A stretch of 64,000 nt of DNA from Octopus vulgaris (taxonomy: Eukaryota). Shown here one piece after another: positions 8,471 through 60,542 of the stretch (positions within the stretch are counted from its first letter, which is position 1; every line of letters starts with the position of its first letter). The notes below the pieces were generated by a model. The model ran no database searches. It had not been told where the DNA came from and saw only the letters and a program-made list of their open reading frames with translations. Both the position numbers and the translations under genes were made by a program. The stretch covers positions 9,982,001 to 10,046,000 of the forward strand of contig OX597829.1 in NCBI GenBank assembly GCA_951406725.2, given 5' to 3'.

Positions 8471-8625
8471 TTAAATCTCAGAGCGAGATGTAAACAGTAA
8501 CCGCTCAACAACGTAAAGTATAACAGCCATCTCAATATGGCTAACGTCGATCTCCTGGGGCTAAAAGCTACAGTAACACCCCCACTTTGTGGTTAGCCAT
8601 ATTGAGATGGCTGTTATACTTTACG
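8471..8625. mobile_element. Miniature fold-back member of the hammerhead-associated family (no ribozyme retained)
   Basis: Perfect 34-bp inverted repeat 8512-8545/8592-8625; motifs shared with 33240-33755 and 40333-40711. Confidence 0.7.
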
Positions 8626-9859
8626 ATGATGCTTAAAGTTGATATTATATTCAGAATATTTCCACGATCCAGTATATTGGGTTGCTTCATAAATTCGTTC
8701 ATTTTTTTTCTTTTTTCTTTACCTACTAGACATTCCGTAATGAGCTGTCTGAAATAAGGTAAAATTTATTCATATTTAAAAAACAAAAAATGAAAGTTGT
8801 AGGGGAACAAAACAACCATAAAACACTACGATAAAAATATTTTTCACATTAATTCAAATGAAGAAAGAAAAAGAACAAACGAATACTTTAAGTTAAATTA
8901 AAATATTAAAACTGAATGACAATGATAAATGTACAAAATGAATGAGCAATAAATAAGCGATAGTTATGAATATTTGAAAATCTTTCATAATTATGTTTAC
9001 ACGCCCGCGGATTCACCGTTGCGGTTAGACAACTGTGGCAGCGTACCAACAGTTTTTCGTTTTTCAATCTTTAACTAAAAGTCATTTCACTTCTCTTACG
9101 ATGTCACAGCATAAGTGCGTCAAAGAATACCTTATATTATTTGCACTGGTTTTCATATTTCTTGGTTTTGAATCGCACAAAGATCAGCTTTATCCTTCAT
9201 CCTTCTGGGTTTCGACAAAATAAAATACCAATTAAGGCCTGAGGGTTAGTAGGATTGTTAAAATTTTCAATTAAATACCTTGCAGTATTTTGGCTCTTTG
9301 ACCTGTGAATCGCCTGTTACAACACAAATATCAAACCATCCAATCTGTTTTTTTTTCTAATGCCATCAGAGTCATGAAGAAGGAAAACCTGCTGCATGGA
9401 AAGCAGCTGGTCTGCTAGAAGAAAAATGTCCCCTGGCATATAAATGAGAAAGTGATCTCACGTGGTGCACCAATGCCAAAACCGGGACATGATCACGATA
9501 AATACAAATTAGGTTTTATAATTAAAATAAGGTTATAACTATAAATAGATTTAGTTTTTGGTGTAGTATTTTAGCTTAAAACATCATCTAAAATGTTAAC
9601 TTGTGATATGGTGGCGATATAAAAGGAAAGTGCGCTTTGGTACTAGTAAAAAAATCCGGATCTCTCTTGGACGCATTAATGCTGCTTGGCATCGTTTGAC
9701 GAAGAAATGCTGTCGACAGAAGAAGATGCAGTCATTGTGATGTCAAGTCGACAACGGATAAAGGCAGTGGCTTGCAGCGCAGTTGTATGGAAATGTATAT
9801 GCTTACATACATACACACACGCACACACACACTGAAAGAGAGAGATAGTGTGAGTAAGA

Positions 9860-10481: not shown

Positions 10482-10571
10482 ACAGAAGCAACAAGGCCCA
10501 AAAGTTTCGTGCGCAGGCACTTATCAAACTATTTGAAACTGTCGGCCCTTGAACTACTTCGTTACTTCCGC

Positions 10572-10636
<65 letters not shown>

Positions 10637-10918
10637 CAACAATTGAGGGTAAAATTAATTAATTAATCAATTTTACCAAGTATTCAGTATACAAAGGGAC
10701 CATTTAAGGCGAATTCAAATTATTACATTATATAAAAGGGCTTAGTAAAATAAATTACTTTGCCGCATACTGAACTCATTAGAAATAGCAGCTAAAAAAA
10801 ACTTTTTCAAAAACTATTTCCAATACTTAAAGAAAACCTCTCTCATATAGTGTTTGCTCAATTCAACTCACAAAAGTATGGGGGTAGAGACATTAAAAAA
10901 TCAAATGCAAAGGTTATT

Positions 10919-10971
10919 TGAGAACGTACGTTTCAAGATTAGTCAAAATCGACACTTCTATCATCAGCTCA
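10919..10971 (-). ncRNA. Type I hammerhead ribozyme
   Basis: Minus strand reads UGAG-CUGAUGA-stem II-GAAA-CGUACG-UU|CUCA. Confidence 0.8.
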
Positions 10972-11478
10972 GAACTCCCTGGTTTGGATTTGAAAACACT
11001 GAAAGTGGGAGCATACCCTTTCGGCTTGTTATCACTTCTGAAGATCTGCTCAAAACTAACAGTGCCAGCAAATTCAAATATGCAAGCGAAGAATTTCTGC
11101 TCTCCCCTTTCCACCAGCGTGGGTTAAAATCAGCAAACACTATGCTTTTTTCGGTAAAATCCGAGGCATTATATAGAGAGAGATGAATTATAATTTCAAC
11201 AATTGAGGGTAAAATTAATTAATTAATCAATTTTACCAAGTATTCAGTATACAAAGGGACCATTTAAGGCGAATTCAAATTATTACATTATATAAAAGGG
11301 CTTAGTAAAATAAATTACTTTGCCGCATACTGAACTCATTAGAAATAGCAGCTAAAAAAAACTTTTTCAAAAACTATTTCCAATACTTAAAGAAAACCTC
11401 TCTCATATAGTGTTTGCTCAATTCAACTCACAAAAGTATGGGGGTAGAGACATTAAAAAATCAAATGCAAAGGTTATT

Positions 11479-11531
11479 TGAGAATGTACGTTTCAAGATT
11501 AGTCAAAATCGACACTTCTATCATCAGCTCA
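11479..11531 (-). ncRNA. Type I hammerhead ribozyme (one stem III substitution)
   Basis: As 10919-10971 but GAAA-CGUACA-UU. Confidence 0.7.
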
Positions 11532-11566
11532 GAACTCCCTGGTTTGGATTTGAAAACACTGAGTTC

Positions 11567-11619
11567 TGAGCTGATGATAGAAGTGTCGATTTTGACTAAT
11601 CTTGAAACGTACGTTCTCA
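11567..11619 (+). ncRNA. Type I hammerhead ribozyme
   Basis: tgag ctgatga [11578-11603] gaaa cgtacg tt ctca. Confidence 0.8.
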
Positions 11620-11803
11620 AATAACCTTTGCATTTGATTTTTTAATGTCTCTACCCCCATACTTTTGTGAGTTGAATTGAGCAAACACTATATGAGAGAG
11701 GTTTTCTTTAAGTATTGGAAATAGTTTTTGAAAAAGTTTTTTTTAGCTGCTATTTCTAATGAGTTCAGTATGCGGCAAAGTAATTTATTTTACTAAGCCC
11801 TTT

Positions 11804-11878
<75 letters not shown>

Positions 11879-11884
11879 CATACA

Positions 11885-11916
<32 letters not shown>

Positions 11917-11939
11917 CATATATACATAAATACGTACGT

Positions 11940-12942: not shown

Positions 12943-13082
12943 CCGCCGAGGTCGACTATCATCCTTTCCGGGTCGATCAAACACGTACCAGTTGCGTACT
13001 GGGGTCGCTGCAATCCACTATCCCTCACCCTCAAAATTTCAGTTCTTCTGCCTATAGTAGAAAGGATTATTATTATTATTAT

Positions 13083-13807
<725 letters not shown>

Positions 13808-27479: not shown

Positions 27480-28823
27480 CGTTAAGAAAACATTAAATCA
27501 AAGAGCGCTACTCTTGGATGACATCTTTTGAGTGGTAATATCCCTTGGATTTGACTTTTGGGCAAACAGTTATGCTGCATGGTAAATTTTTTGCATTATC
27601 TTATATTCTTGGCGTATATTATAGTCGTATGCTTGTGTGCTGAGGTAGTTCATCATGGGGATATATTTCTTCTGTGTTTGGATTTTGTGTGCTATGTGTA
27701 TTCAAATTTGGCGTTCAGGAAAAGGGATATCTGGTTGGATTAGCGGAGCAGGTGGTGGTTCCTCTTTGAAGTGTTTAAATGTGAAATATTGCTTGTGTAT
27801 ACAGGGAAATATTTCATCCCTAATGTCTAGGGTATTATTTGTCGACTGTATGATATTTAGTTTTACAGTGATACGGAGTTCATATAAGGTACCCCGTCCT
27901 CTGTATTTTCTAGCTTTAGCAATGATGTTTCATTTTATCTGGAGATTACTTAGTCCACCTTCTTTCAATGTCCATATCATATTGGATAGGTACGTTGCGT
28001 GTATTTTTTTAAATTTTCGTCTCTGAATGAAGCTAGGTGTTGTGTGTACTCTTCCTTGAATGAGCTGCCCGTCATTCCGATATACGTCTTGGCTACTCTT
28101 TGACTTTGTATACAAGTTCTTTTTCGAGACAGTTGTTGCTTAGAAAGCAGCGGTTTGGCAATCTGAAGTTGCATTGTCTTTCGGGGGGTGTTTCTGGTTT
28201 GTTTATTTTTATTGCGGTTGAGTATTATTGACCCAATATTGGGGAGGCACCTATAGCTATCTTTAACAGTGTTTCTGTTGAAGATCTTGTGGTATTTTTG
28301 TGAACATGCGAAGCAGTTGTCTCTTAATTTTAAGAATTTCCTAGCTATTTTAGTGGCTACATTTATGCTATAAGTTGGGTTAATCCAGGAGATTTTCCTA
28401 TGTTTGCGTAATTTTGGTCTATCTGTATTTGATTCGGTGTAGATTATGCTAATCTTGGAGTTGGGCCTTTTAAATGCAGCCTTATATTATGGGACAGCTT
28501 TTTCAAAGGTGTCTTTATCGGCGGATAAATTGGAGACGCACCTGCTAATGTTGTTATCTATTTGTTTAATTGCTACTAGGTGGTTGGAACCTATGTCTGT
28601 GTACGATGCTTCCTCATTTGGTTTATGGTAGGGTTTAAATTTGTCTGTGCTAAGGTTCGTGTTGATATCTAGGTAGTTGACTTCTTTAAGGTCGGTGCTA
28701 ATTTTGCATAATTTTTCCTTAGTCTATCCATATCACGTCTGTTTTGATTGCGTGATATTCCCGGGTCATCGTCCCTATAAGTCTATTGTTAGCTTCTTTA
28801 TTTCTTTTCTAAGAATATCCAGG
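27480..28823 (-). mobile_element. Penelope-like element remnant (RT + GIY-YIG endonuclease)
   Basis: Minus-strand YRDD, NYLDI, KPYHKPN, WINPTYSINVATKI, KIFNRNTVK, KTYIGMTGSSFK and C-terminal LDIRDEIFPCIHK; frameshifted. Confidence 0.85.
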
Positions 28824-32142: not shown

Positions 32143-33063
32143 GAGGGGCGTTCAATAAGTAATGCCTCTGATCCACTTGCAGTTGTTTGATCTAGTTTGA
32201 TATTCGCCAAATATCCCATAAGGTCAAGATTAGTACCGGGTCTGTGGAAACTATCATTTATGAACATTTGCATATGCAAAAGGTGTTTGCCAGATGGATT
32301 CCCAGGTTGCTCACACCTTTCCAGAAGCAAGAACGCGTCGAGTGCTCGAGGGTGAATTTGGAGATGTGCCAAGAAGATGAGTAAAAATTTCTCAAAAGAC
32401 TGATTACACAGAATGAGACTTGGGTCCATGACTATGATCCAGAGGCCAAAGCCCAGTCAATGCAGTGGAAGCACCCTGACTCACCTCCTTCAAAGAAGGC
32501 AAGGGTGCAGCCATCCGCTGGCAAGGTCATGCTCACAGTCTTCTGGGACCAGGACGGAGTAGTGATGACAGATTTCCTGGCAAAGGGTACCACAATTACA
32601 GGAGCCTATTATGCTTCATTTTTGAGGAAATTAAGAGAAGCTATCAAAATCAAGAGGCGGGACAAGATCAGCAAAGGCATCCTCCTCCTGCAGGACAACG
32701 CTCCGGTCCACAACTCGCTTGTCGCCAGATCAGAAGCACAGGCGTGCGGCTATGAACTCCTCCCCCACCCCCTACTCTCCTCACCTTGCACCCTCTGATT
32801 TTCACCTCTTCCCAGTCATGAAGTTGTTTTTGAAAGGAAAGCGTTTCCCAGATGATGCAGCCTTGATTTCTGAAGTCACGTCGTGGTTGGAGGACCAAGC
32901 TGGGGTCTTCTACAAAACCGTCTCCAGAGCTGCATCAAACGATGGGAGAAATGCGTAACTCTGGCTGGTTCCTATGTAGAAAAATACTAATAACTGTGCC
33001 AAGTTTCGTTGCTCTACTGCTATGGGAAGTGGGTCAGGGGCATTACTTATTGAACGCCCCTCG
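32143..33063 (+). mobile_element. Internally deleted mariner (DD34D-type) transposon
   Basis: TIRs gaggggcgttcaataagtaatgcc / ggcattacttattgaacgcccctcg+TA; motifs WIPRLL, NETWVHDYDPE, LQDNAPVH and PYSPHLAPSDFHLF. Confidence 0.9.
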
Positions 33064-33129
<66 letters not shown>

Positions 33130-33239
33130 TAATCGAAACGGGAAAACAGAAAAAACAACAACACGTGGAACAATTAAAGTATTACTATTAGGCGCTCAGG
33201 AAAAATGGAAGAAGGAATATATATATATATATATATAAT

Positions 33240-33746
33240 AATAAATCTCTGAGCGAGGTATAAACAGTAACTGCTCTATAATATAAGCGGGATCAGCCAT
33301 CTGAATGTGGCTAGGGACAGGGCGGGGTGGTGGGGGTGTTACTGATGCATTTAGCCCCAGGCGATTATCGACGTCACCAGAAGAGCCGACACCATCACGG
33401 TGTCCTTGCTAGCCTGCAAAGGGAGATCAGCCTCACCGAAGATACGGATTTTCTACGCCAGTGACTGTGGTTACTGTGAAAATCTATATATATCTGGCCT
33501 GTACAAGAAGTTCCTCAGCGAAGAACGGTGCTTGCCATGCGCTGACAAGAGGCAAATACCTCGAAACCGGTCCGTGTGTAGCATCCGTATCTTCGGTGAG
33601 GCTGATCTCCCTTTGCAGGCTAGCAAGGACACCGTGATGGTGTCGGCTCTTCTGGTGACGTCGATAGTCGCCTGGGGCTAAATGCATCAGTAACACCCCC
33701 ACCACCCCGCCCTGTCCCTAGCCACATTCAGATGGCTGATCCCGCT

Positions 33747-33755
<9 letters not shown>
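33240..33755 (+). mobile_element. Fold-back element with a hammerhead in the spacer, within (TA)n
   Basis: 173-bp arms 33277-33449/33583-33755 with one mismatch seen. Confidence 0.85.
33536..33578 (+). ncRNA. Minimal type I hammerhead, G8A variant
   Basis: catgcg ctgacaa gagg-caaata-cctc gaaa ccgg tc|cgtgtg. Confidence 0.65.
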
Positions 33756-33804
<49 letters not shown>

Positions 33805-34035
33805 TACAGATATTGGGTAAAACATGTAATGAATGTTTCACTCCTGTATAACATGGTGCAGTTTTTTTCTGCGGTACTATCTTGTGACGCACATGGTAAT
33901 CTTGGAGGAAAAATTTGAATTCACTCGTCTATATAATTTGGATGTGCTGACTATCTTCTGTTGTTCCCCGATGTCGCTTCATCGGGATGCAAAGGGTAGG
34001 TTCTTAGCATTTTCAAATTTAGAAATTATCGAATT

Positions 34036-39058: not shown

Positions 39059-40314
39059 CAGAGTGCGTAACATTTGAGAACAGATTTATGTTTATATAAA
39101 AAGAAACAGATATATAATAACGGATAATAAAATGTTTTCTCAAAAAATGCTATGAGGATAAAAATAAACCTTATCTATAATGTTATTCAATAAAGTCACC
39201 TTCAGCTTCAACGATTGCTTCTATGCGAGATCTAAATCACCTACGTGCTCCGAATCAAGTGGTCCTGGTTCATTTTGGACATTACTCTGACTATGGCAGC
39301 CTTCAAAGAATCTTTGATATTATGAGCATGTTCATTGACCTCTCTCTCAAGAACGCTCCACATGTAATAGTGTAATGGATTGAGATCTAGGGAATTAGGA
39401 GGCCAAATGTTAGGGGTTATGTGATTATGAAAATTTTCAGCCTTCCACTCCTGTGTTACTAGAGCCATGTGTGATAGCGTAGAGTCTTACTAAAACACAT
39501 ATGGCCTTCCATTGCTTACACTGACTATCCAGGGCTTAACAATTATTTCTAGGGCCTTAGTGTAGGCGGCAGAGTTAACTCAAGGACATTGTGGTAAGAA
39601 GTAAGGGAAGGGGCTTCACATGTCCTTCATTGCTGACAACCCCTAAAACCATGACAGTTGTAGGAAACTTTGCATGCATGACACTTGGAACTTCAGAAGG
39701 GTCTGCACATAAGCATCTGTTATTTCTTCTGTCAACCTTTTGATCTTGGTCGAAGTTTTTCTCATTTGAGAAAAACCAAATCAAATCTGCTGGATTTTTC
39801 AGTCTTTTTAAGAACCTTTTAGATCTGATATTGTGATTTTCTTTTGCTTTTTCTGGCAAACTGACCTTTCTTCATCATATAAGACTTATATCTGATGTCT
39901 TCGTGGACAACGTTTCTGACTGCTTCTTCTGACACATGGAGATATTTTGCAATAGACCTCATGGACTTTGTAATCAATGGTCTGTTGAATTTGCTGGATA
40001 AATTCAGGTGTTCTGATGATTTCAGAGTGTTTAGACTGCTTTTTACGCTTTGATACTGGGGAAACATTTCCATCTTCAGTGTCTAGCTCTTTACAAACTT
40101 TGAAGACGAAAGCACAGGCAACTTTAAATAATCGAGATATTTCTAAATCGCTATGCTCAAACTTTATAACCACAATAACAGCATGCCTCTTCATTTCTTG
40201 AGTTAGCTGAGGGTCTGCCTTTATTGTTTTCTGAAACAAAGATTATACAGAGTCAGCAAAAAACTGCAGCAATGACCCGAAAACGTTATGACCTCAAATA
40301 ACTTACGCATCCTG
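39059..40314 (-). mobile_element. Decayed Tc1/mariner-superfamily transposon (maT-like)
   Basis: MKRHAVIV..HSDLEISR, WFFSNEKNF, VMVLGVVSNEG and WPPNSLDLNPLHY; imperfect TIRs cagagtgcgtaac / cttacgcatcctg. Confidence 0.85.
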
Positions 40315-40332
40315 AATATATACATATATATC

Positions 40333-40711
40333 GTGAAGTATATTTGCCACCTAAATGTGGCTGACCCATAGGAGACGACGTTACTGTTGTTTATAGCCCC
40401 AGGAAAACATCTCCTACAGCTGGCTATCGACACACCGTCTGTGCCCGATCAGTGATTGCCACACGCTGATGATGGGTTACTACCCAGAAACTCGGGTCTG
40501 TGTGTATCAGGTAAGGCTAGAGATGGCAACGATGATTTCCCTTCGCAAATACTGATCGGGCAACAAAGAGTGCGTCGTTAGCCAGCTGGAGATATATTTC
40601 TGAGGCTATAAACTACAGTAGCATCGTTCCCTATGGGTCACCTACATTTTGGTGGCTAATATACTTCACAATGTCGTGCTGCTACTGTTTATATTTCGCT
40701 CAGAGATTTAT
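40333..40711 (+). mobile_element. Imperfect rod-like fold-back element with a hammerhead in the loop
   Basis: Arms 40333-40459/40545-40669; tail 40670-40711 is shared with 33240-33276 and 8471-8510. Confidence 0.8.
40460..40504 (+). ncRNA. Minimal type I hammerhead ribozyme, canonical core
   Basis: cacacg ctgatga tgggt-tact-accca gaaa c-tcgg-g tc|tgtgtg. Confidence 0.85.
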
Positions 40712-41048
40712 TATTGTATATATATTTTTTTCTCTCCTTGTTTTTTTCTGGTCGGACGCTAGTCAAATGGGCTCCACGTAAGTTGGCCACGTTTACACTC
40801 CTTATTGTGAAATATTTTGTTTTTAAACGTTGTGCAAGATTATTCACTAAAAGACCTGGGAATGTTTCACGTAGAATTCCGCCCCTGTATGGACGAAATT
40901 ACCAAAAGTTTCCAAACTTTCGTGGTTTCTTTTTAGCCATTTTTCATTTTGAAAATGGGATTCAAAGGAATACGTTAGTTGGTGGCATAAATTTGGCACA
41001 GTCCAACTACGTTTCCACAATGAAAATCTAGCGAAACGATTTTCCACA

Positions 41049-41636
41049 TTGGATCTGCATACAGATGACTTGGTGATGGTACTAACTTATTTAGGCCAGA
41101 GGGTGACGGAAGTCACAATAAAAGATGTACCACCTGAAGTCGAAATACAATGGCTAGTCTCTGCCATCTGCTTTGAAATGGCAGAGACAAACATTCTTGA
41201 AATCGCTGTTTTACAACAGAGAAACTGGGTGGGAAAATCAATTCAATTACTCCTTCAGTTGGATGAAACAACAAGAGAAAAGATACCAACCACTATAGAA
41301 CTGCCAGAAGGCTACAAACTCTATGTAGTGGTAGAGGGCAGGCGACCACGTTGCTATCTGTGCGGAAGTGAAGCACATTCAAAAAAGAAGTGTCCAACCA
41401 CTGCACAACAAGAGCAACAACAACAACCACTACTACAACAAAAACACTCCGAGAAAAAAGCACTACTACCCACACCACCGTCAACACCGAAGACGACAAG
41501 AGAAGCACATCAAGCAAATCCATCAATAATCAAAAATAATACAACACCTGAGAAAATACCTGAGAAAATACCAACATCACCAACAACAGCAAGAACTAAA
41601 GGAACAGAAAAACAAAAGAAAATATACAAAAACTGA
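41049..41636 (+). pseudogene. LINE ORF1 (gag-like CCHC knuckle)
   Basis: CYLCGSEAHSKKKC = CX2CX4HX4C. Confidence 0.8.
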
Positions 41637-42269
41637 TTCCCCATCCCCTATACCGCACTCACCACACACAAACACTCAACAATCAACAGCAACGAAAACA
41701 ACAACACAACCACTTACACAGACATACATAGAAGCCTACAACATACCCCTACCCCCTTCTGATTCCTCAGAAAATTCGTCAGAAGATGAAACCAGCGAGG
41801 AATGGCAAATAGCTAGAAAAAGAAGGAAAAAAAAGAGCAGTAAAACAACCAAACCAAATACAAGCACAAACAAAGCAGGGGGATATACACCCCCCGAAGA
41901 CATTTCGAAGCCCACCACAAACAACAGCCACACCAAAAACACAAAAATATGTGCAGCAAACATGCTCACACCAAAAACACAAATTTGATGGAATACATCA
42001 AATAAAAAACAAAGATAACTGATGACATAAAAGCAAACTATCACCCATACACAACACCTCCGGATCACATCAAAATACTACATATATCCAGAAGTCTGCA
42101 CCATACACTAAAAGGCATTTTCCCCAGTGCGGTTGGTAAATGCCAAAAATATCTCACAAAGAAACTGTACTGGGATCTCCTCGAGGACAAACCAAAGGAG
42201 GAGAAAGCAAAAACTTTCGAACAGTAAGTAACCCTCTGTTCCTTTCCCTTGTATTCTAATTCATTAGGA

Positions 42270-44308
42270 TTATGGTCAAGACTGATTGTGAAAATGCGCG
42301 TGGCTTGGGGTCCCCTTAGAAACAAGGGTACCTCTTAAATGACATAAAGTCACACAAGTTAGAAATCATAACCATAAGTGAGACCAGACTCCACAATCCG
42401 CGGGCCCTAAAGACCATGTTTGGCGGACAGTTCAACATTTATTTTCCACCCTGTCCGCCGAGAATGGGCGGTAGTGGCACCGCGGTACTTTTTCGCAAGT
42501 GTCTGGATCTCAAAGTAAAGACAATATTCGTAGACCCGGAGGGTAGACTGGTCGTCCTGGATGTCGACGGAAGCAATGGGTTCTCTTTTCGACTCGTATC
42601 AGTCTACGCACCTCCTTTAACAGGTCGGGCGGATTTCTTTCAACGTCTAGAAGTATTCCTGGGAACGTCTCATCCTTTACTCTTAGTGGGGAATTGGAAT
42701 GCTATCTTGGACACGCATGTAGACTACGTGGGCAGAGATAGGAATAGACGGGAATGCAAATGCCTCAGAGACCTGTTCAGACGCTTTCAACTGTCTGACA
42801 GGTTCCGACTAGACCACCCGAATGCGCCAACGTGGACATGGAGCAAACGCATCGGGTCGTCGAGATAGTATCTAGATAGGATATTGTGTAGGACAGTAGA
42901 GATAGCGTAGGATGACCACAATTCCACATAGTCAGCTACACGGATCACAAACGTGTGACATGTATTCTAGACTTAGGTAAGACACATAGGCAGGGTCCCG
43001 GATACTGGAAACTAAACGCGTCTTTCCCATCGAGACAGGTTTTCAGAGACCGGATTAGCACACTAGTAAAGAGGGCTTTGACGGGAGCCATCATCAACAA
43101 CAAATGGTGGTTCGCCCTCAAGAGAGCAATAAAAGCAGAAGCGATTAGGTACAGCAAAGCACTACCCATATATAGAAACACAGTAGAGGGTGAGCTAGTT
43201 AAGAATCTAGAAGAGGCAATTAGAAGCGGCATCGCATCCGACTTTTGGGCGGCGAGGTTGGCCCTCGACCAACACTTCAACGCCAAGCACGGAGGGTGTG
43301 TTGTCAGAGCTAGGATGCGTGCTCTAAGGAACGAAAGTGTTGGAGCCGCGCGAGAGGCCCAGGTGGAAGAGGCGCAACAGGGCAACAATACCACTATTCG
43401 GTCTCTGGTAAATGAACATCTATCGAGACCTTTCGACATTGCACGTTCGATCCTTCTATACGTATTGACTCTCGAGCCATTATTGCGGAAGCTGGCAACT
43501 CTGAGGGGCATACCGCGAGAATTGGGATGCGGGTCGAGCGTGTCTGCATACGCAGACGACGTCACCGTCATAGTGTGTAGCCACGAGCACAGCGACCTGG
43601 TCAGCGAGACACTGAAAGACTTCGAAGCGGTGACAGGAGCGAATTCAACCGGGAAAAGTCAGTGGTCTTGCGGCTCGGCACCTGGAGAAGCATGCCCATG
43701 CCGCCCACCAGCACCTCCGTCGTGGGACGCTAGACCGACGGTCCGGTCGAGTTGCTCGGGGTCTGGTTTGGTCCGGATCCAAACGGATAAGAACTGGAAC
43801 GAGATAACGAATAGGGTGGTCACTCTCGCCCGGCAATGGGCCGAGTGGAAACTGTCCCTAAATGGTCGGGCGGAGGTGGCGAACTCGTACATCGCGTCCG
43901 TCATCTACTCTCGCCTGACCGTCGTGCCTTGTCCCGACCCTACCATTACCAAACTAGAACGCATTCTCTTTCGCTTCTTGTGGAAAGGATGCGTTCCAAT
44001 GGTCAGGCCATCCATTTGCTGTCAACACCCGTTAAAAGGAGGACTGGGCATGACGTGGTTGATGATGCGCAGACACGCGCTGAGACTGCGACATTTCAGG
44101 ATCTACGTAAACGACGGTGAACAGGTGTGGCCGCCGTTTGTGAGGCACGCTTTCCCGCAGCTCGTCTCCATGACCGAACTGCAGTCGTGGATCAAAAAGA
44201 GGCCGAGGAAGGGCGAATGGCACCGAGAGTGTCGCGTTGCTCTCAAGCAACTCTGCCGTCCCGGGTCGACCTTGAGTGACTTCAACACAACCAAAGCATT
44301 CTATAGGA
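42270..44308 (+). pseudogene. LINE ORF2 (endonuclease/RT), disrupted
   Basis: ISETRL, SVYAP, GNWNA, TDH, GPGYWKLN, YADDVT and PLKGGLG; RT N-terminal motifs are missing near 43415-43450. Confidence 0.85.
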
Positions 44309-44453
44309 GATTTTTTTCTTTTATTTTTTTTCTCCTTTCCCTTTTACGATCCCTTTTGATCGAAAACCTAGCCCACTTTTTTTTCTCCCCATAAAGAAAA
44401 GCTCTACTGTGTAATCTGTCCTGCCTGTGTGCAACCCTCTGTGTCTAATAAAG

Positions 44454-47789: not shown

Positions 47790-48130
47790 TGGAACTAAAG
47801 GTATGTTTCTGCCAATGTTTGCAACGATAAACAGGCTCTGTATACGTGTTTGCAAGAGGATTATCTGGGAACAGGATGAAGTACATTTCACTGTTACAAA
47901 GGGAACAAAATGATTTACCTTTATCATACTGTAAAAACTATAGAGAGAATATTCCATTCCAAATCAAATTGTTTATTATGATCCTTTAGATCCCAGATTA
48001 ATTTACTAAGCCCAGTATTGTTATGTGTAATGATATGTCTAAACGAATATCTAATCATTACTCTACATTTAGGCATATCAATAAATGTGACAATACCAAT
48101 GTTTTCTTCGAAACATATGTCGGAAGTAAA
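47790..48130 (-). mobile_element. Penelope-like GIY-YIG C-terminal remnant
   Basis: Manual minus-strand translation: NNTGLSKLIWDLKDHNKQFDLEWNIL..YDKGKSFCSLCNSEMYFIL..RCKH. Confidence 0.7.
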
Positions 48131-58600: not shown

Positions 58601-59673
58601 GTTTCTTTATTAGCCACACAGGGCTGCACACAGACAGAACAAATTACAAGGTAGAGCTTTTCTTTTGGGGGTAAAAAAGGGGGTTGGTTTTCGATCAAAA
58701 GGGATCGTAAAAGGAAAGAAAGAGGACAAAAAAAGGGGAGGATTTTAAAAAGGTGGGGGGGGGAGGGGAAAAAAAGAAAAGGGAGAGGAAAAAAAAGTTG
58801 ATCAATAGGGATCGTAATCACAGAAATGTCAATATGAAGTGTAAAGGGGAGGACAGGTGAGGTTTACCCGTGGAAAGAAAAGCCTACGGAAAAGACCACG
58901 GTAACCTCTGTCAATGAAGTCACATGTTATATTTCTTTTTTTTTTTTTTTTTGCAAATAAGCAACTCTCTGTATTAATTTTTACGGTTCATAGAATCATA
59001 GTCAAAGTGGCTTCGTCATTCATACGTGCCATCCTTGCTACATTCACCCATCTTTTTTAAAACATTCACTAGACAAAACTTGCCTCTCTACTCTCACTTT
59101 CCTCTTCAAGTGATACTTGAAGAAGTTGATGAGAGATTGACCAGAGAGGAAGGTGTTTGTCTCTAATCCTTTCAGGCGCGTCCACCAGATACATTCTTTC
59201 GCCATAGCCACAAGTATGATAAAAATAGCTCTTCCTTCCCATTTGAAGGAAGGAGGCGTGACGATATTAACGATAGACTCGGCTGATAAACCGACACGTC
59301 CCACACGTGACAGTAGTCGTTCGACATAAGCCCACAGGTCGGAAATTGCAGGACACTGCACGATTGCGTGCAGAACGGTTTCGTCGCTCTGCCCGCATCT
59401 CGGGCAGGTCGGCCCCGTGTTTCTTGAGCCGTGCCTATAGAGCTTATCCCGAACGGGTAGCGCTTCTCTGTAGCACCGCCAGGCCAGGGATCTCTGGAAG
59501 TTGTCCATAGGTCCCGGGCGGAAAGTCGTTTGAAACAGGCGGGTCAGGTATTCCTCGTCGACGCCCAGGTTTGCCCCGAGATCGTCGTCGTACCTCCCCT
59601 CCACTAATCCCCTATAGAATGCTTGGGTTGTGTTGAAGTCACTCAAGGTCGACCCGGGACGGCAGAGTTGCTT
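58601..59673 (-). mobile_element. 5'-truncated Tx1/L1-type LINE inside (GATA)n
   Basis: Open frame with CPRCGQSDETVLHAIVQC finger; same 3' end AATAAAGAAAC as 44447-44457; GATA tracts on both sides. Confidence 0.9.
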
Positions 59674-59688
59674 ATAGATAGATAGATT

Positions 59689-59794
<106 letters not shown>

Positions 59795-60542
59795 CATATG
59801 AATTGAAATAAATGCTGTTGGTTTTGTTTAAACAAGTACCCGAACAAATTAAGTTCCATTGTATCGTTAGATAAACCTGTTTAATTTAAAGTTAGAATTT
59901 CAACTAGGTCTGTTTCCGTGCGGTTTATATACATCACTCATTGTAAGAATTCTTTTAGAATGGGAATGAAGTGTCATTAAATTATACATATAAATCATGT
60001 TTTTGTTGAGCAAATGTTCATTACAATGAAATTATCAGCCTATCAACCTACTCTGTCATATTTTAGCATATAAATAGCTAATTAAAGGTATGTTGGAGGT
60101 GAAATCAACTTTTATTTGGTTACATTTAATGAAAAAAAAAAGCAGTAGCTGTAGAAGAAGACTGCTTTTAATGTTTCCGATGGACATTTTCGTTTCAGTT
60201 TATCATTAAAGGCGATAATAAAACATTTATAATTTTATAGTGTAGGTTTACTTGTATTTAGCCTAACTAAATTCATGGGTTTAGGTCAACGCTGGAGAGG
60301 GTCAGTTTTCATTATGGAAATAATGTTATTACTGTAACTCATTTTTATTTTCCCTTCCCACGAAACTGAAACACAGAAACAATGATGCAATGGTAACTAT
60401 TATGCTGGCAATCTTGCAAACAGATTTGTCAGATTTATTTCCTTCTCTTGTTTTATCTTGTTCAACTCTTTTGTTATGTTTTACCATTTTTCGAAACGCA
60501 GTATTTAATGAGCGAGTAAATCTTCAGAGACAGAAGACACGG

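Follow-up and report, generated by a model that had tools for sequence, protein, structure and literature searches.

Introduction

The described systems closest to the locus reported here are the Penelope-type retroelements (PLEs) that carry hammerhead ribozymes and the non-LTR retrozymes of metazoans. Insertions of PLEs are described as partial tandems, often with an inverted 5′-truncated copy at the 5′ end, with a tail of 30–40 bp at one end and with a bias for microsatellites (PMC8557442, Craig et al. 2021). Another study, made with a purified PLE protein, reports cleavage of AT-rich DNA and extension of both strands, with starts at two internal sites and with mostly uncut RNA as the template (PMC11167929, Frangieh et al. 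2024). The hammerheads of PLEs are characterized by a helix I of 4–5 bp, a long helix II, a palindromic 15.2–16.2 pair and weak activity even as dimers, and the G10.1–C11.1 pair is called highly conserved in them (PMC4209133). Cleavage of dimers by PLE hammerheads is attributed to PMC5785218, as cited in a review.

Dependence of the animal retrozymes on PLEs has been proposed, and the published support, as far as the available texts go, consists of their co-occurrence and of homology to pseudo-LTRs (pLTRs). In a recent study of predicted Xenopus dimers, one out of nine was cleaved in vitro and the other eight were not (10.64898/2026.07.22.740005, Li, Clavereau and Pollet). PLEs are reported to make up 6.83% of the Octopus vulgaris genome, with 31 families counted as recently active (PMC13282606). 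The word ribozyme is absent from the text and one supplement of a 2026 repeat annotation of this species. Searches of the open-access literature listed no description of a cephalopod retrozyme, and the family may already be catalogued.

Here we describe an element at positions 10633–11811 of the window, by which we mean the whole stretch of 64,000 nucleotides of DNA that was analysed. We consider it likely that this element, inserted in an octopod-like genome, is a young copy of an abundant non-autonomous Penelope-type retroelement, namely a non-LTR retrozyme of the metazoan kind whose hammerhead is PLE-type. The microsatellite load and the base composition of the window look octopus-like.

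Results

Tandem and inverted copies between (TA)n tracts

Read in the minus-strand sense, the element consists of an inverted copy (11811–11561), a repeat (11562–11193), a 190-nt part that is present once and a second repeat (11002–10633). The features, by window position, are as follows.

10575 to about 10632–10634, no strand: (TA)n target microsatellite, adjoining the element on its 3′ side
10633–11002, minus: downstream copy of the direct repeat, pseudo-LTR-like, bearing hammerhead 2
10633–10726, minus: 94-nt 3′ extension, found on the direct copies and not on the inverted copy
10919–10971, minus: hammerhead 2, type I by descriptor, with intact helix III palindrome, GUU triplet and U–U at the base of helix II; predicted cut after 10923
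10923–11482, minus: predicted 560-nt monomer between the two predicted cuts
11003–11192, minus: 190-nt part, once in the locus and part of the family unit; base pairing predicted with the sequence immediately past the cut site
11193–11562, minus: upstream copy of the direct repeat, bearing hammerhead 1
11208–11237, no strand: AT-rich near-perfect palindrome of 30 nt within the 3′ extension; second occurrence at 10648–10677
11479–11531, minus: hammerhead 1, predicted cut after 11483; helix III pair C15.2–G16.2 broken by the change at 11485
11538–11560, no strand: inversion spacer of 23 nt, with a 2-nt microhomology at 11561–11562
11561–11811, plus: inverted 5′-truncated copy of 251 nt, the 5′ end of the element
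11567–11619, plus: hammerhead 3, within the inverted copy, palindrome intact; predicted cut after 11615
11812–11932, no strand: (TA)n/(TACA)n microsatellite on the opposite side of the element

The 560-nt unit is present in 1.66 head-to-tail copies, which make up 930 nt (11562–10633). The direct repeats (10633–11002 and 11193–11562) are 370 nt in length, have a period of exactly 560, lie 190 nt apart and differ at a single place, 10925/11485. The inverted arms (11287–11537 and 11561–11811) are 251 nt in length with a 23-nt spacer, and their sole mismatch is at 11485/11613. The first-pass annotation of this DNA had described near-identical copies, an inverted copy of about 250 bp with a 23-nt spacer and (TA)n on both sides, and our measurements agree with this description, the (TA)n covering 10575–10634 and starting again from about 11812. 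The insertion had also been called recent, and we observed one difference among the duplicated parts against a spread of 1–10% in the family, which supports this view.

Three hammerhead cores of type I

Cores of type I hammerheads were located at 11527–11491 and 10967–10931 on the minus strand and at 11571–11607 on the plus strand, confirming the two co-oriented motifs and the inverted third one that had been annotated. By the standard hammerhead numbering, the cuts are predicted after 11483, 10923 and 11615; the two minus-strand sites coincide with those given at first, 560 nt apart. We scanned the DNA with a descriptor composed of the core, a helix I of at least 4 bp, a helix II of at least 3 bp and a closed helix III. 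It gave three matches in the 64-kb window (two of the three hammerheads of the element, and one at 40466) and none in each of 20 block-shuffled windows. The upstream co-oriented hammerhead passes the descriptor in helices I and II and fails in helix III. The palindrome of stem III, another feature of the first-pass annotation, is found as ACGUACGU in two of the three hammerheads, whereas the upstream co-oriented one has ACGUACAU and lacks the C15.2–G16.2 pair. This is the single mismatch of the locus, a CpG to TpG change on the plus strand at 11485, adjoining the upstream cut site.

Helix I has 4 contiguous pairs and is open, helix II has 3 plus 3–4 pairs with a U–U at its base, and helix III has 2 bp and a palindromic 4-nt closing loop. 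The triplet is GUU, and the hammerheads of the window lack G10.1–C11.1. As judged from its sequence, the shape of the hammerhead resembles the PLE type.

Rfam gave no match at the gathering score in the whole 64-kb window, and at E up to 10 the region 10500–11900 gave 24 weak matches, none of which was a hammerhead. As there is no library match, the identity of the hammerheads stands on the descriptor and on the variation within the family. When folded as isolated 81-nt segments, none of the three motifs took the active hammerhead fold or scored better than its own shuffles (z +0.45 to +1.46). The descriptor scan revealed no ribozyme of opposite polarity inside the unit, and the third hammerhead stems from the inversion. 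Pairs of hammerheads on opposite strands, 100–700 bp apart, were reported earlier (PMC4209133). The inverted third copy had been presented as a special feature of the locus; we instead regard it as an ordinary footprint of PLE insertion, as this is described in PMC8557442 and PMC4209133.

An abundant and diverged family in sequencing runs

The unit or a part of it was present in 20 of the 24 runs listed (8 studies, 3 organism labels), and at least half of its words were present in 13; the run that contains most of the unit may be the source sample. Contigs from four runs, of which X1 and X6 are DNA runs, were aligned to one permuted unit, 10823–11382. Matching contigs numbered 4438 in X1 and 3077 in X6, and they gave depth in all 30 bins, including the 190-nt part. 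By identity, the X1 contigs fell into classes of 99% and above (1764), 95–99% (1649), 90–95% (877) and under 90% (148). None of the runs that contain the unit was listed as RNA. The two runs guessed to be RNA, whose contigs show neither ends, strand nor circles, had the unit in 29 of 30 bins. The depths were not used as copy number, and we call the family abundant from the contig counts and their diversity. On these grounds the family is abundant and diverged.

The joint 11002/11003 was bridged by at least 31 letters on both sides in 5 of the 32 matches listed (7818 further). At the tandem-order joint 11192/11193 the required 31 letters were reached in none of the 32 matches listed (7818 further), the crossings being 23 and 30. 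Two of the 24 loose ends listed (of 251), both in run X17, show (TA)n at 11189–11196, which is the same 3′ end as that of the window copy. The opposite-strand joint of a different copy was seen in X6. A diverged hammerhead was seen at one further loose end of X6; over 30 nt it carries 10 changes, and all of these avoid the 6 invariant core positions (chance 0.065). Of its changes, one is at the free position 7, one converts the U–U of helix II to A–U, and those adjacent to the core keep or gain pairs; this copy would also have a longer helix I, provided that its unseen 3′ strand is unchanged. The window copy holds the minority letter at several positions, e.g. 11234, 11251 and 11034, and therefore belongs to a subfamily.

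The very high abundance raises the question of whether the family has become a satellite-like DNA repeat which spreads at the DNA level and whose hammerhead is a relic, or whether the locus is an assembly artefact at microsatellites. The joints listed for the four runs do not include the inversion joint of the locus, a point in favour of this explanation, although contigs cannot show absence, and so is the spread of the family variants over the predicted fold that is given in the next section. The locus, however, consists of one 1.66-mer whose flanks are distinct and whose joints show microhomology. Beside (TA)n, further copies have their end at the same place as this one, another copy has an opposite-strand joint of its own and the core is conserved in the diverged copy. 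Of all the explanations weighed in this work, we find this one the least probable.

Among the changed places, A>G and T>C together numbered 22 out of 50 and 21 out of 50 in the two runs guessed to be RNA; for the DNA runs the corresponding figures were 15 out of 42 and 7 out of 35. A-to-I editing could be hinted at by these figures; the samples differ and the RNA label is guessed, and we do not count them as evidence.

Pattern scans yielded 0, 4 and 0 loci in viral contigs, 0 and 0 in genome contigs and 1 in metagenome contigs. The loci found in this way (L001–L005) match only 11–24 nt around the pattern and were set aside as unrelated.

Coding capacity and predicted fold of the unit

The unit has a GC content of 33.75%, and the sense strand of its circularised form has no ATG frame longer than 18 aa. 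On the antisense strand, a 111-aa frame (10851–11186) exceeds most shuffles in length (P 0.029 stop-to-stop; 0.007 from ATG). It has no Pfam match and no usable Atlas hit; its family variants are synonymous in 7 and non-synonymous in 26 of 33 cases with no stops, and family copies carry 1- and 2-nt indels. We rejected a coding circle of the HDV-like or obelisk-like kind because this frame has no family, no synonymous bias or other constraint, and indels among the copies. The unit is non-coding, with no coding signal.

We then weighed the possibility that an autonomous PLE carries this unit as its terminal (pseudo-LTR) region, in which case the locus would be a heavily 5′-truncated tandem and inverted insertion and the 560-nt period a by-product. 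Both the hammerhead and the anatomy are of the PLE type, PLE insertions are mostly 5′-truncated and homology between retrozymes and pLTRs has been reported. In X1, a loose end after 11027 (3 contigs) departs into other sequence. Against this, the share of contigs running on into at least 20 unlike letters was 0 and 0 in the DNA runs (0.01 and 0.14 for the two putative RNA runs), the contigs being so short that a rare ORF-linked parent could stay hidden. The depth spans the whole unit, including the 190-nt part, and the longest ATG frame of the sense strand is the 18-aa one. Copies always attached to a PLE ORF had been named in the first-pass annotation as evidence against a retrozyme, and what we observed in the contigs of the DNA runs was almost no run-on into unrelated sequence. 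Overall, we judge it unlikely that the unit belongs to the end of an autonomous element.

The locus itself was rejected as an autonomous PLE, as there are only 190 nt between the repeats and no RT or GIY-YIG frame. No autonomous PLE partner was found, and a decayed PLE in the window has no significant DNA match to the unit (best E 0.055).

The linear monomer has a predicted fold of −150 kcal/mol (z −5.25), and the circle is predicted to be 63% paired (z −5.5); the opposite strand also folds well (z −4.6 and −4.1). Among the 40 family variants listed of 76, 11 keep a pair of the sense-strand fold, 10 break one and 19 are unpaired, and on the other strand the numbers are 9, 10 and 21. The variants give the predicted fold of the monomer no clear preference, and neither confirm nor refute this model. 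One candidate compensatory pair, 11252/11325, has variant shares of 42%/49% in X1, 46%/53% in X6 and 71%/74% in X12, these shares being unphased.

Footprint of the insertion and a proposed mechanism

The features of a PLE insertion that we observed at the locus are the partial tandem forming pseudo-LTRs, the inverted 5′-truncated copy beside the 5′ end and the (TA)n target on both sides. The one-sided extension measures 94 nt against the 30–40 bp of the described PLE tail, and is a possible counterpart of this tail. The polarity of the arms fits two cDNAs whose priming took place at the two ends of a single break.

We propose that an autonomous PLE would have supplied the RT and GIY-YIG protein, and that this protein would have bound an RNA longer than one unit, either an uncut tandem transcript or a 560-nt circle, and would also have cut the (TA)n DNA. 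One cDNA, primed at the left end, would have run for 930 nt (1.66 units) across two uncut ribozyme sites. The 251-nt inverted arm would represent either a fold-back of the first cDNA or a separate cDNA started from the opposite break end, and the two cDNA arms would have been joined at the 2-nt microhomology. The joint would be the same either way, and a fold-back may account better for the short spacer. As two cut sites lie within the long cDNA, whose end is 79 nt upstream of the first of them, the template would not have been a cut linear monomer.

A more specific version of this proposal is that the template was the 560-nt RNA circle of an abundant octopod retrozyme, and that the insertion records the RT of a PLE rolling round it from both ends of the break. 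Bearing on this are the identity of the repeats (369 of 370 nt, against the 1–10% spread of the family) and the position of both cDNA ends upstream of the cut site. Near-identical repeats in so diverse a family would fit a circle copied more than once, as was proposed in PMC4209133; they would equally fit the transcript of a young homogeneous tandem. We put the circular template forward tentatively, and find it more doubtful than probable. In tandems of the family elsewhere, slow cleavage of dimers would be probable and circularisation possible.

Monomer release at this locus

The first-pass annotation had seen in the locus a candidate retrozyme whose transcript could release a 560-nt monomer. 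The young non-coding unit with its tandem hammerheads holds good; the release at this particular locus does not fare so well, owing to the mismatch and to burial in a hairpin. The helix III duplex of the dimer was computed at −7.2 kcal/mol with the mismatch versus −9.8 kcal/mol when intact, and in a read-through transcript 62 of the 63 nt around the upstream hammerhead are predicted to pair with the inverted arm. Both the mismatch in helix III and the pairing with the inverted arm therefore weigh against monomer release here. Release of the 560 nt is doubtful because it requires the upstream cut, and that hammerhead is mismatched and would be buried in a hairpin of 251 bp.

There are nevertheless some observations that would suit transcription of the locus, dimer cleavage at its two sites and release of a circularising 560-nt RNA. 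The predicted cut sites are spaced exactly one unit apart; when the inverted arm is left out of the model, pair probabilities of 0.40–0.78 are obtained for helices I and II in the two hammerheads, and the mixed helix III duplex still forms in spite of its lower stability. GUU is among the NUH triplets listed as cleavable (PMC3138052), and circles do arise from the retrozymes of mussel and coral (PMC7229834). However, besides the mismatch beside the upstream cut and the pairing with the inverted arm, the hammerheads of the PLE type are described as cleaving poorly, dimers included (PMC4209133). Insertion by an anole PLE did not need cleavage, and no RNA-seq reads are reported to have started or ended at the cut site (PMC11167929). 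On this evidence we think it very unlikely that the locus frees such an RNA. It is probably a poor source of circular RNA, and is likely to be a dead end in which read-through RNA would form a long hairpin.

Other repeats of the window

The decayed PLE of the window at 27995–28720 (minus) is 33–39% identical to two RT/GIY-YIG-like proteins; these domains are named by their motifs, Pfam having given no match. The presence of this remnant in the window is in line with the proposed PLE-type origin of the 560-nt unit. Together with a second piece at 47933–48052 (minus), it is 33–44% identical to proteins P0001 and P0002.

The descriptor match at 40466 (plus) is the core of a second, unrelated hammerhead of type I, with a helix I of 6 bp, a helix II of 5 bp, a closed helix III and a GUC triplet. 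It tops an imperfect inverted repeat of 343 nt (40330–40672) which folds as one rod (z −15), the two strands being nearly equal (−187 versus −191 kcal/mol), and which has partial relatives at 8482–8627. This rod may be a MITE-like DNA palindrome with a hammerhead, or may represent a second, rod-like retrozyme family.

A self-inverted repeat of roughly 590 nt at 33216–33805 (81% identity) is MITE-like, with (TA)n nearby on both sides. The regions 1418–2057 and 13066–13693 form a pair of 640-nt repeats, 95% identical and in opposite orientation, each ending in AAT-type microsatellites. Broken LINE frames of the Tx1/L1-like kind are present at 40953–44394 (plus) and 59044–59880 (minus), and their named animal relatives include Argonauta and fish Tx1 proteins. 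Among the 14 relatives of a LINE-like frame, the best animal-named match is from the octopod Argonauta hians (48%), and two closer or similar matches either lack a name or bear a bacterial MAG label. The frames at 32385–32958 (plus) and 39886–40242 (minus) resemble remnants of Tc1/mariner transposases.

Discussion

Taken by itself, the locus shows nothing beyond ordinary PLE biology, and its family belongs to a kind that has been described from animals before. A retrozyme-like non-coding unit with the footprint of a PLE insertion lends independent, modest support to the link between retrozymes and PLEs. If the family makes circles, it would offer an abundant and easily tested cephalopod example. 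If the template was indeed a circle, the insertion would be direct anatomical evidence for PLE proteins mobilising retrozyme circles. In that case, the inversions would also seed long dsRNA hairpins in an animal group known for heavy RNA editing.

Outwardly, the element recalls the LTR retrozymes of plants in its repeat–unique–repeat order, each repeat having its own hammerhead and the two lying about 600 nt apart. The plant elements, however, have type III hammerheads, high GC, a PBS and a PPT, and 4-bp target duplications (PMC5680766), whereas the element is of type I by descriptor, has 34% GC and lies in (TA)n with an inversion. A retrozyme of the plant LTR type was rejected, as the hammerhead is not of type III (helix I is open, and helix III is closed by a 4-nt loop). 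The non-autonomous elements of Chlamys, e.g. MRC1, are similar to the element in having pseudo-LTRs and head-to-tail copies and in the dependence on PLEs that is proposed here for the element. They differ in being green algal, and most Chlamys elements are described as lacking canonical hammerheads (PMC8557442).

With the hammerhead PLEs (PMC4209133; PMC8557442; PMC11167929), the element shares the partial tandem, the inverted 5′-truncated copy, two different 3′ ends, an AT-rich microsatellite target, a short helix I and a palindromic helix III. Unlike them, it has no RT or GIY-YIG ORF, and its one-sided extension is longer than the tail described for PLEs.

Like the metazoan non-LTR retrozymes (PMC7229834; 10.64898/2026.07.22.740005), the element is a non-coding tandem unit with one hammerhead of type I in each copy, low GC, a self-paired predicted fold and many copies. 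The U–U at the base of its helix II is also found in the axolotl HHR_Amex2 (PMC7229834). The unit of 560 nt is longer than the approximately 170–400 nt of the invertebrate retrozymes described, but lies inside the range of 51–972 bp given by Li. Its helix I has 4 bp and its helix II is long, in contrast to the 6 bp and 4 bp of the canonical form. That form and its loop contacts are typical and not universal, as mussel motifs without most of the contact nucleotides are described. The element further differs in its inverted 5′ copy. With respect to the activity criterion of Li 2026, namely at least two consecutive complete hammerheads, the element has two co-oriented cores 560 nt apart, the upstream one being mismatched in helix III. 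At the level of sequence, the features of the element are for the most part those of a metazoan non-LTR retrozyme.
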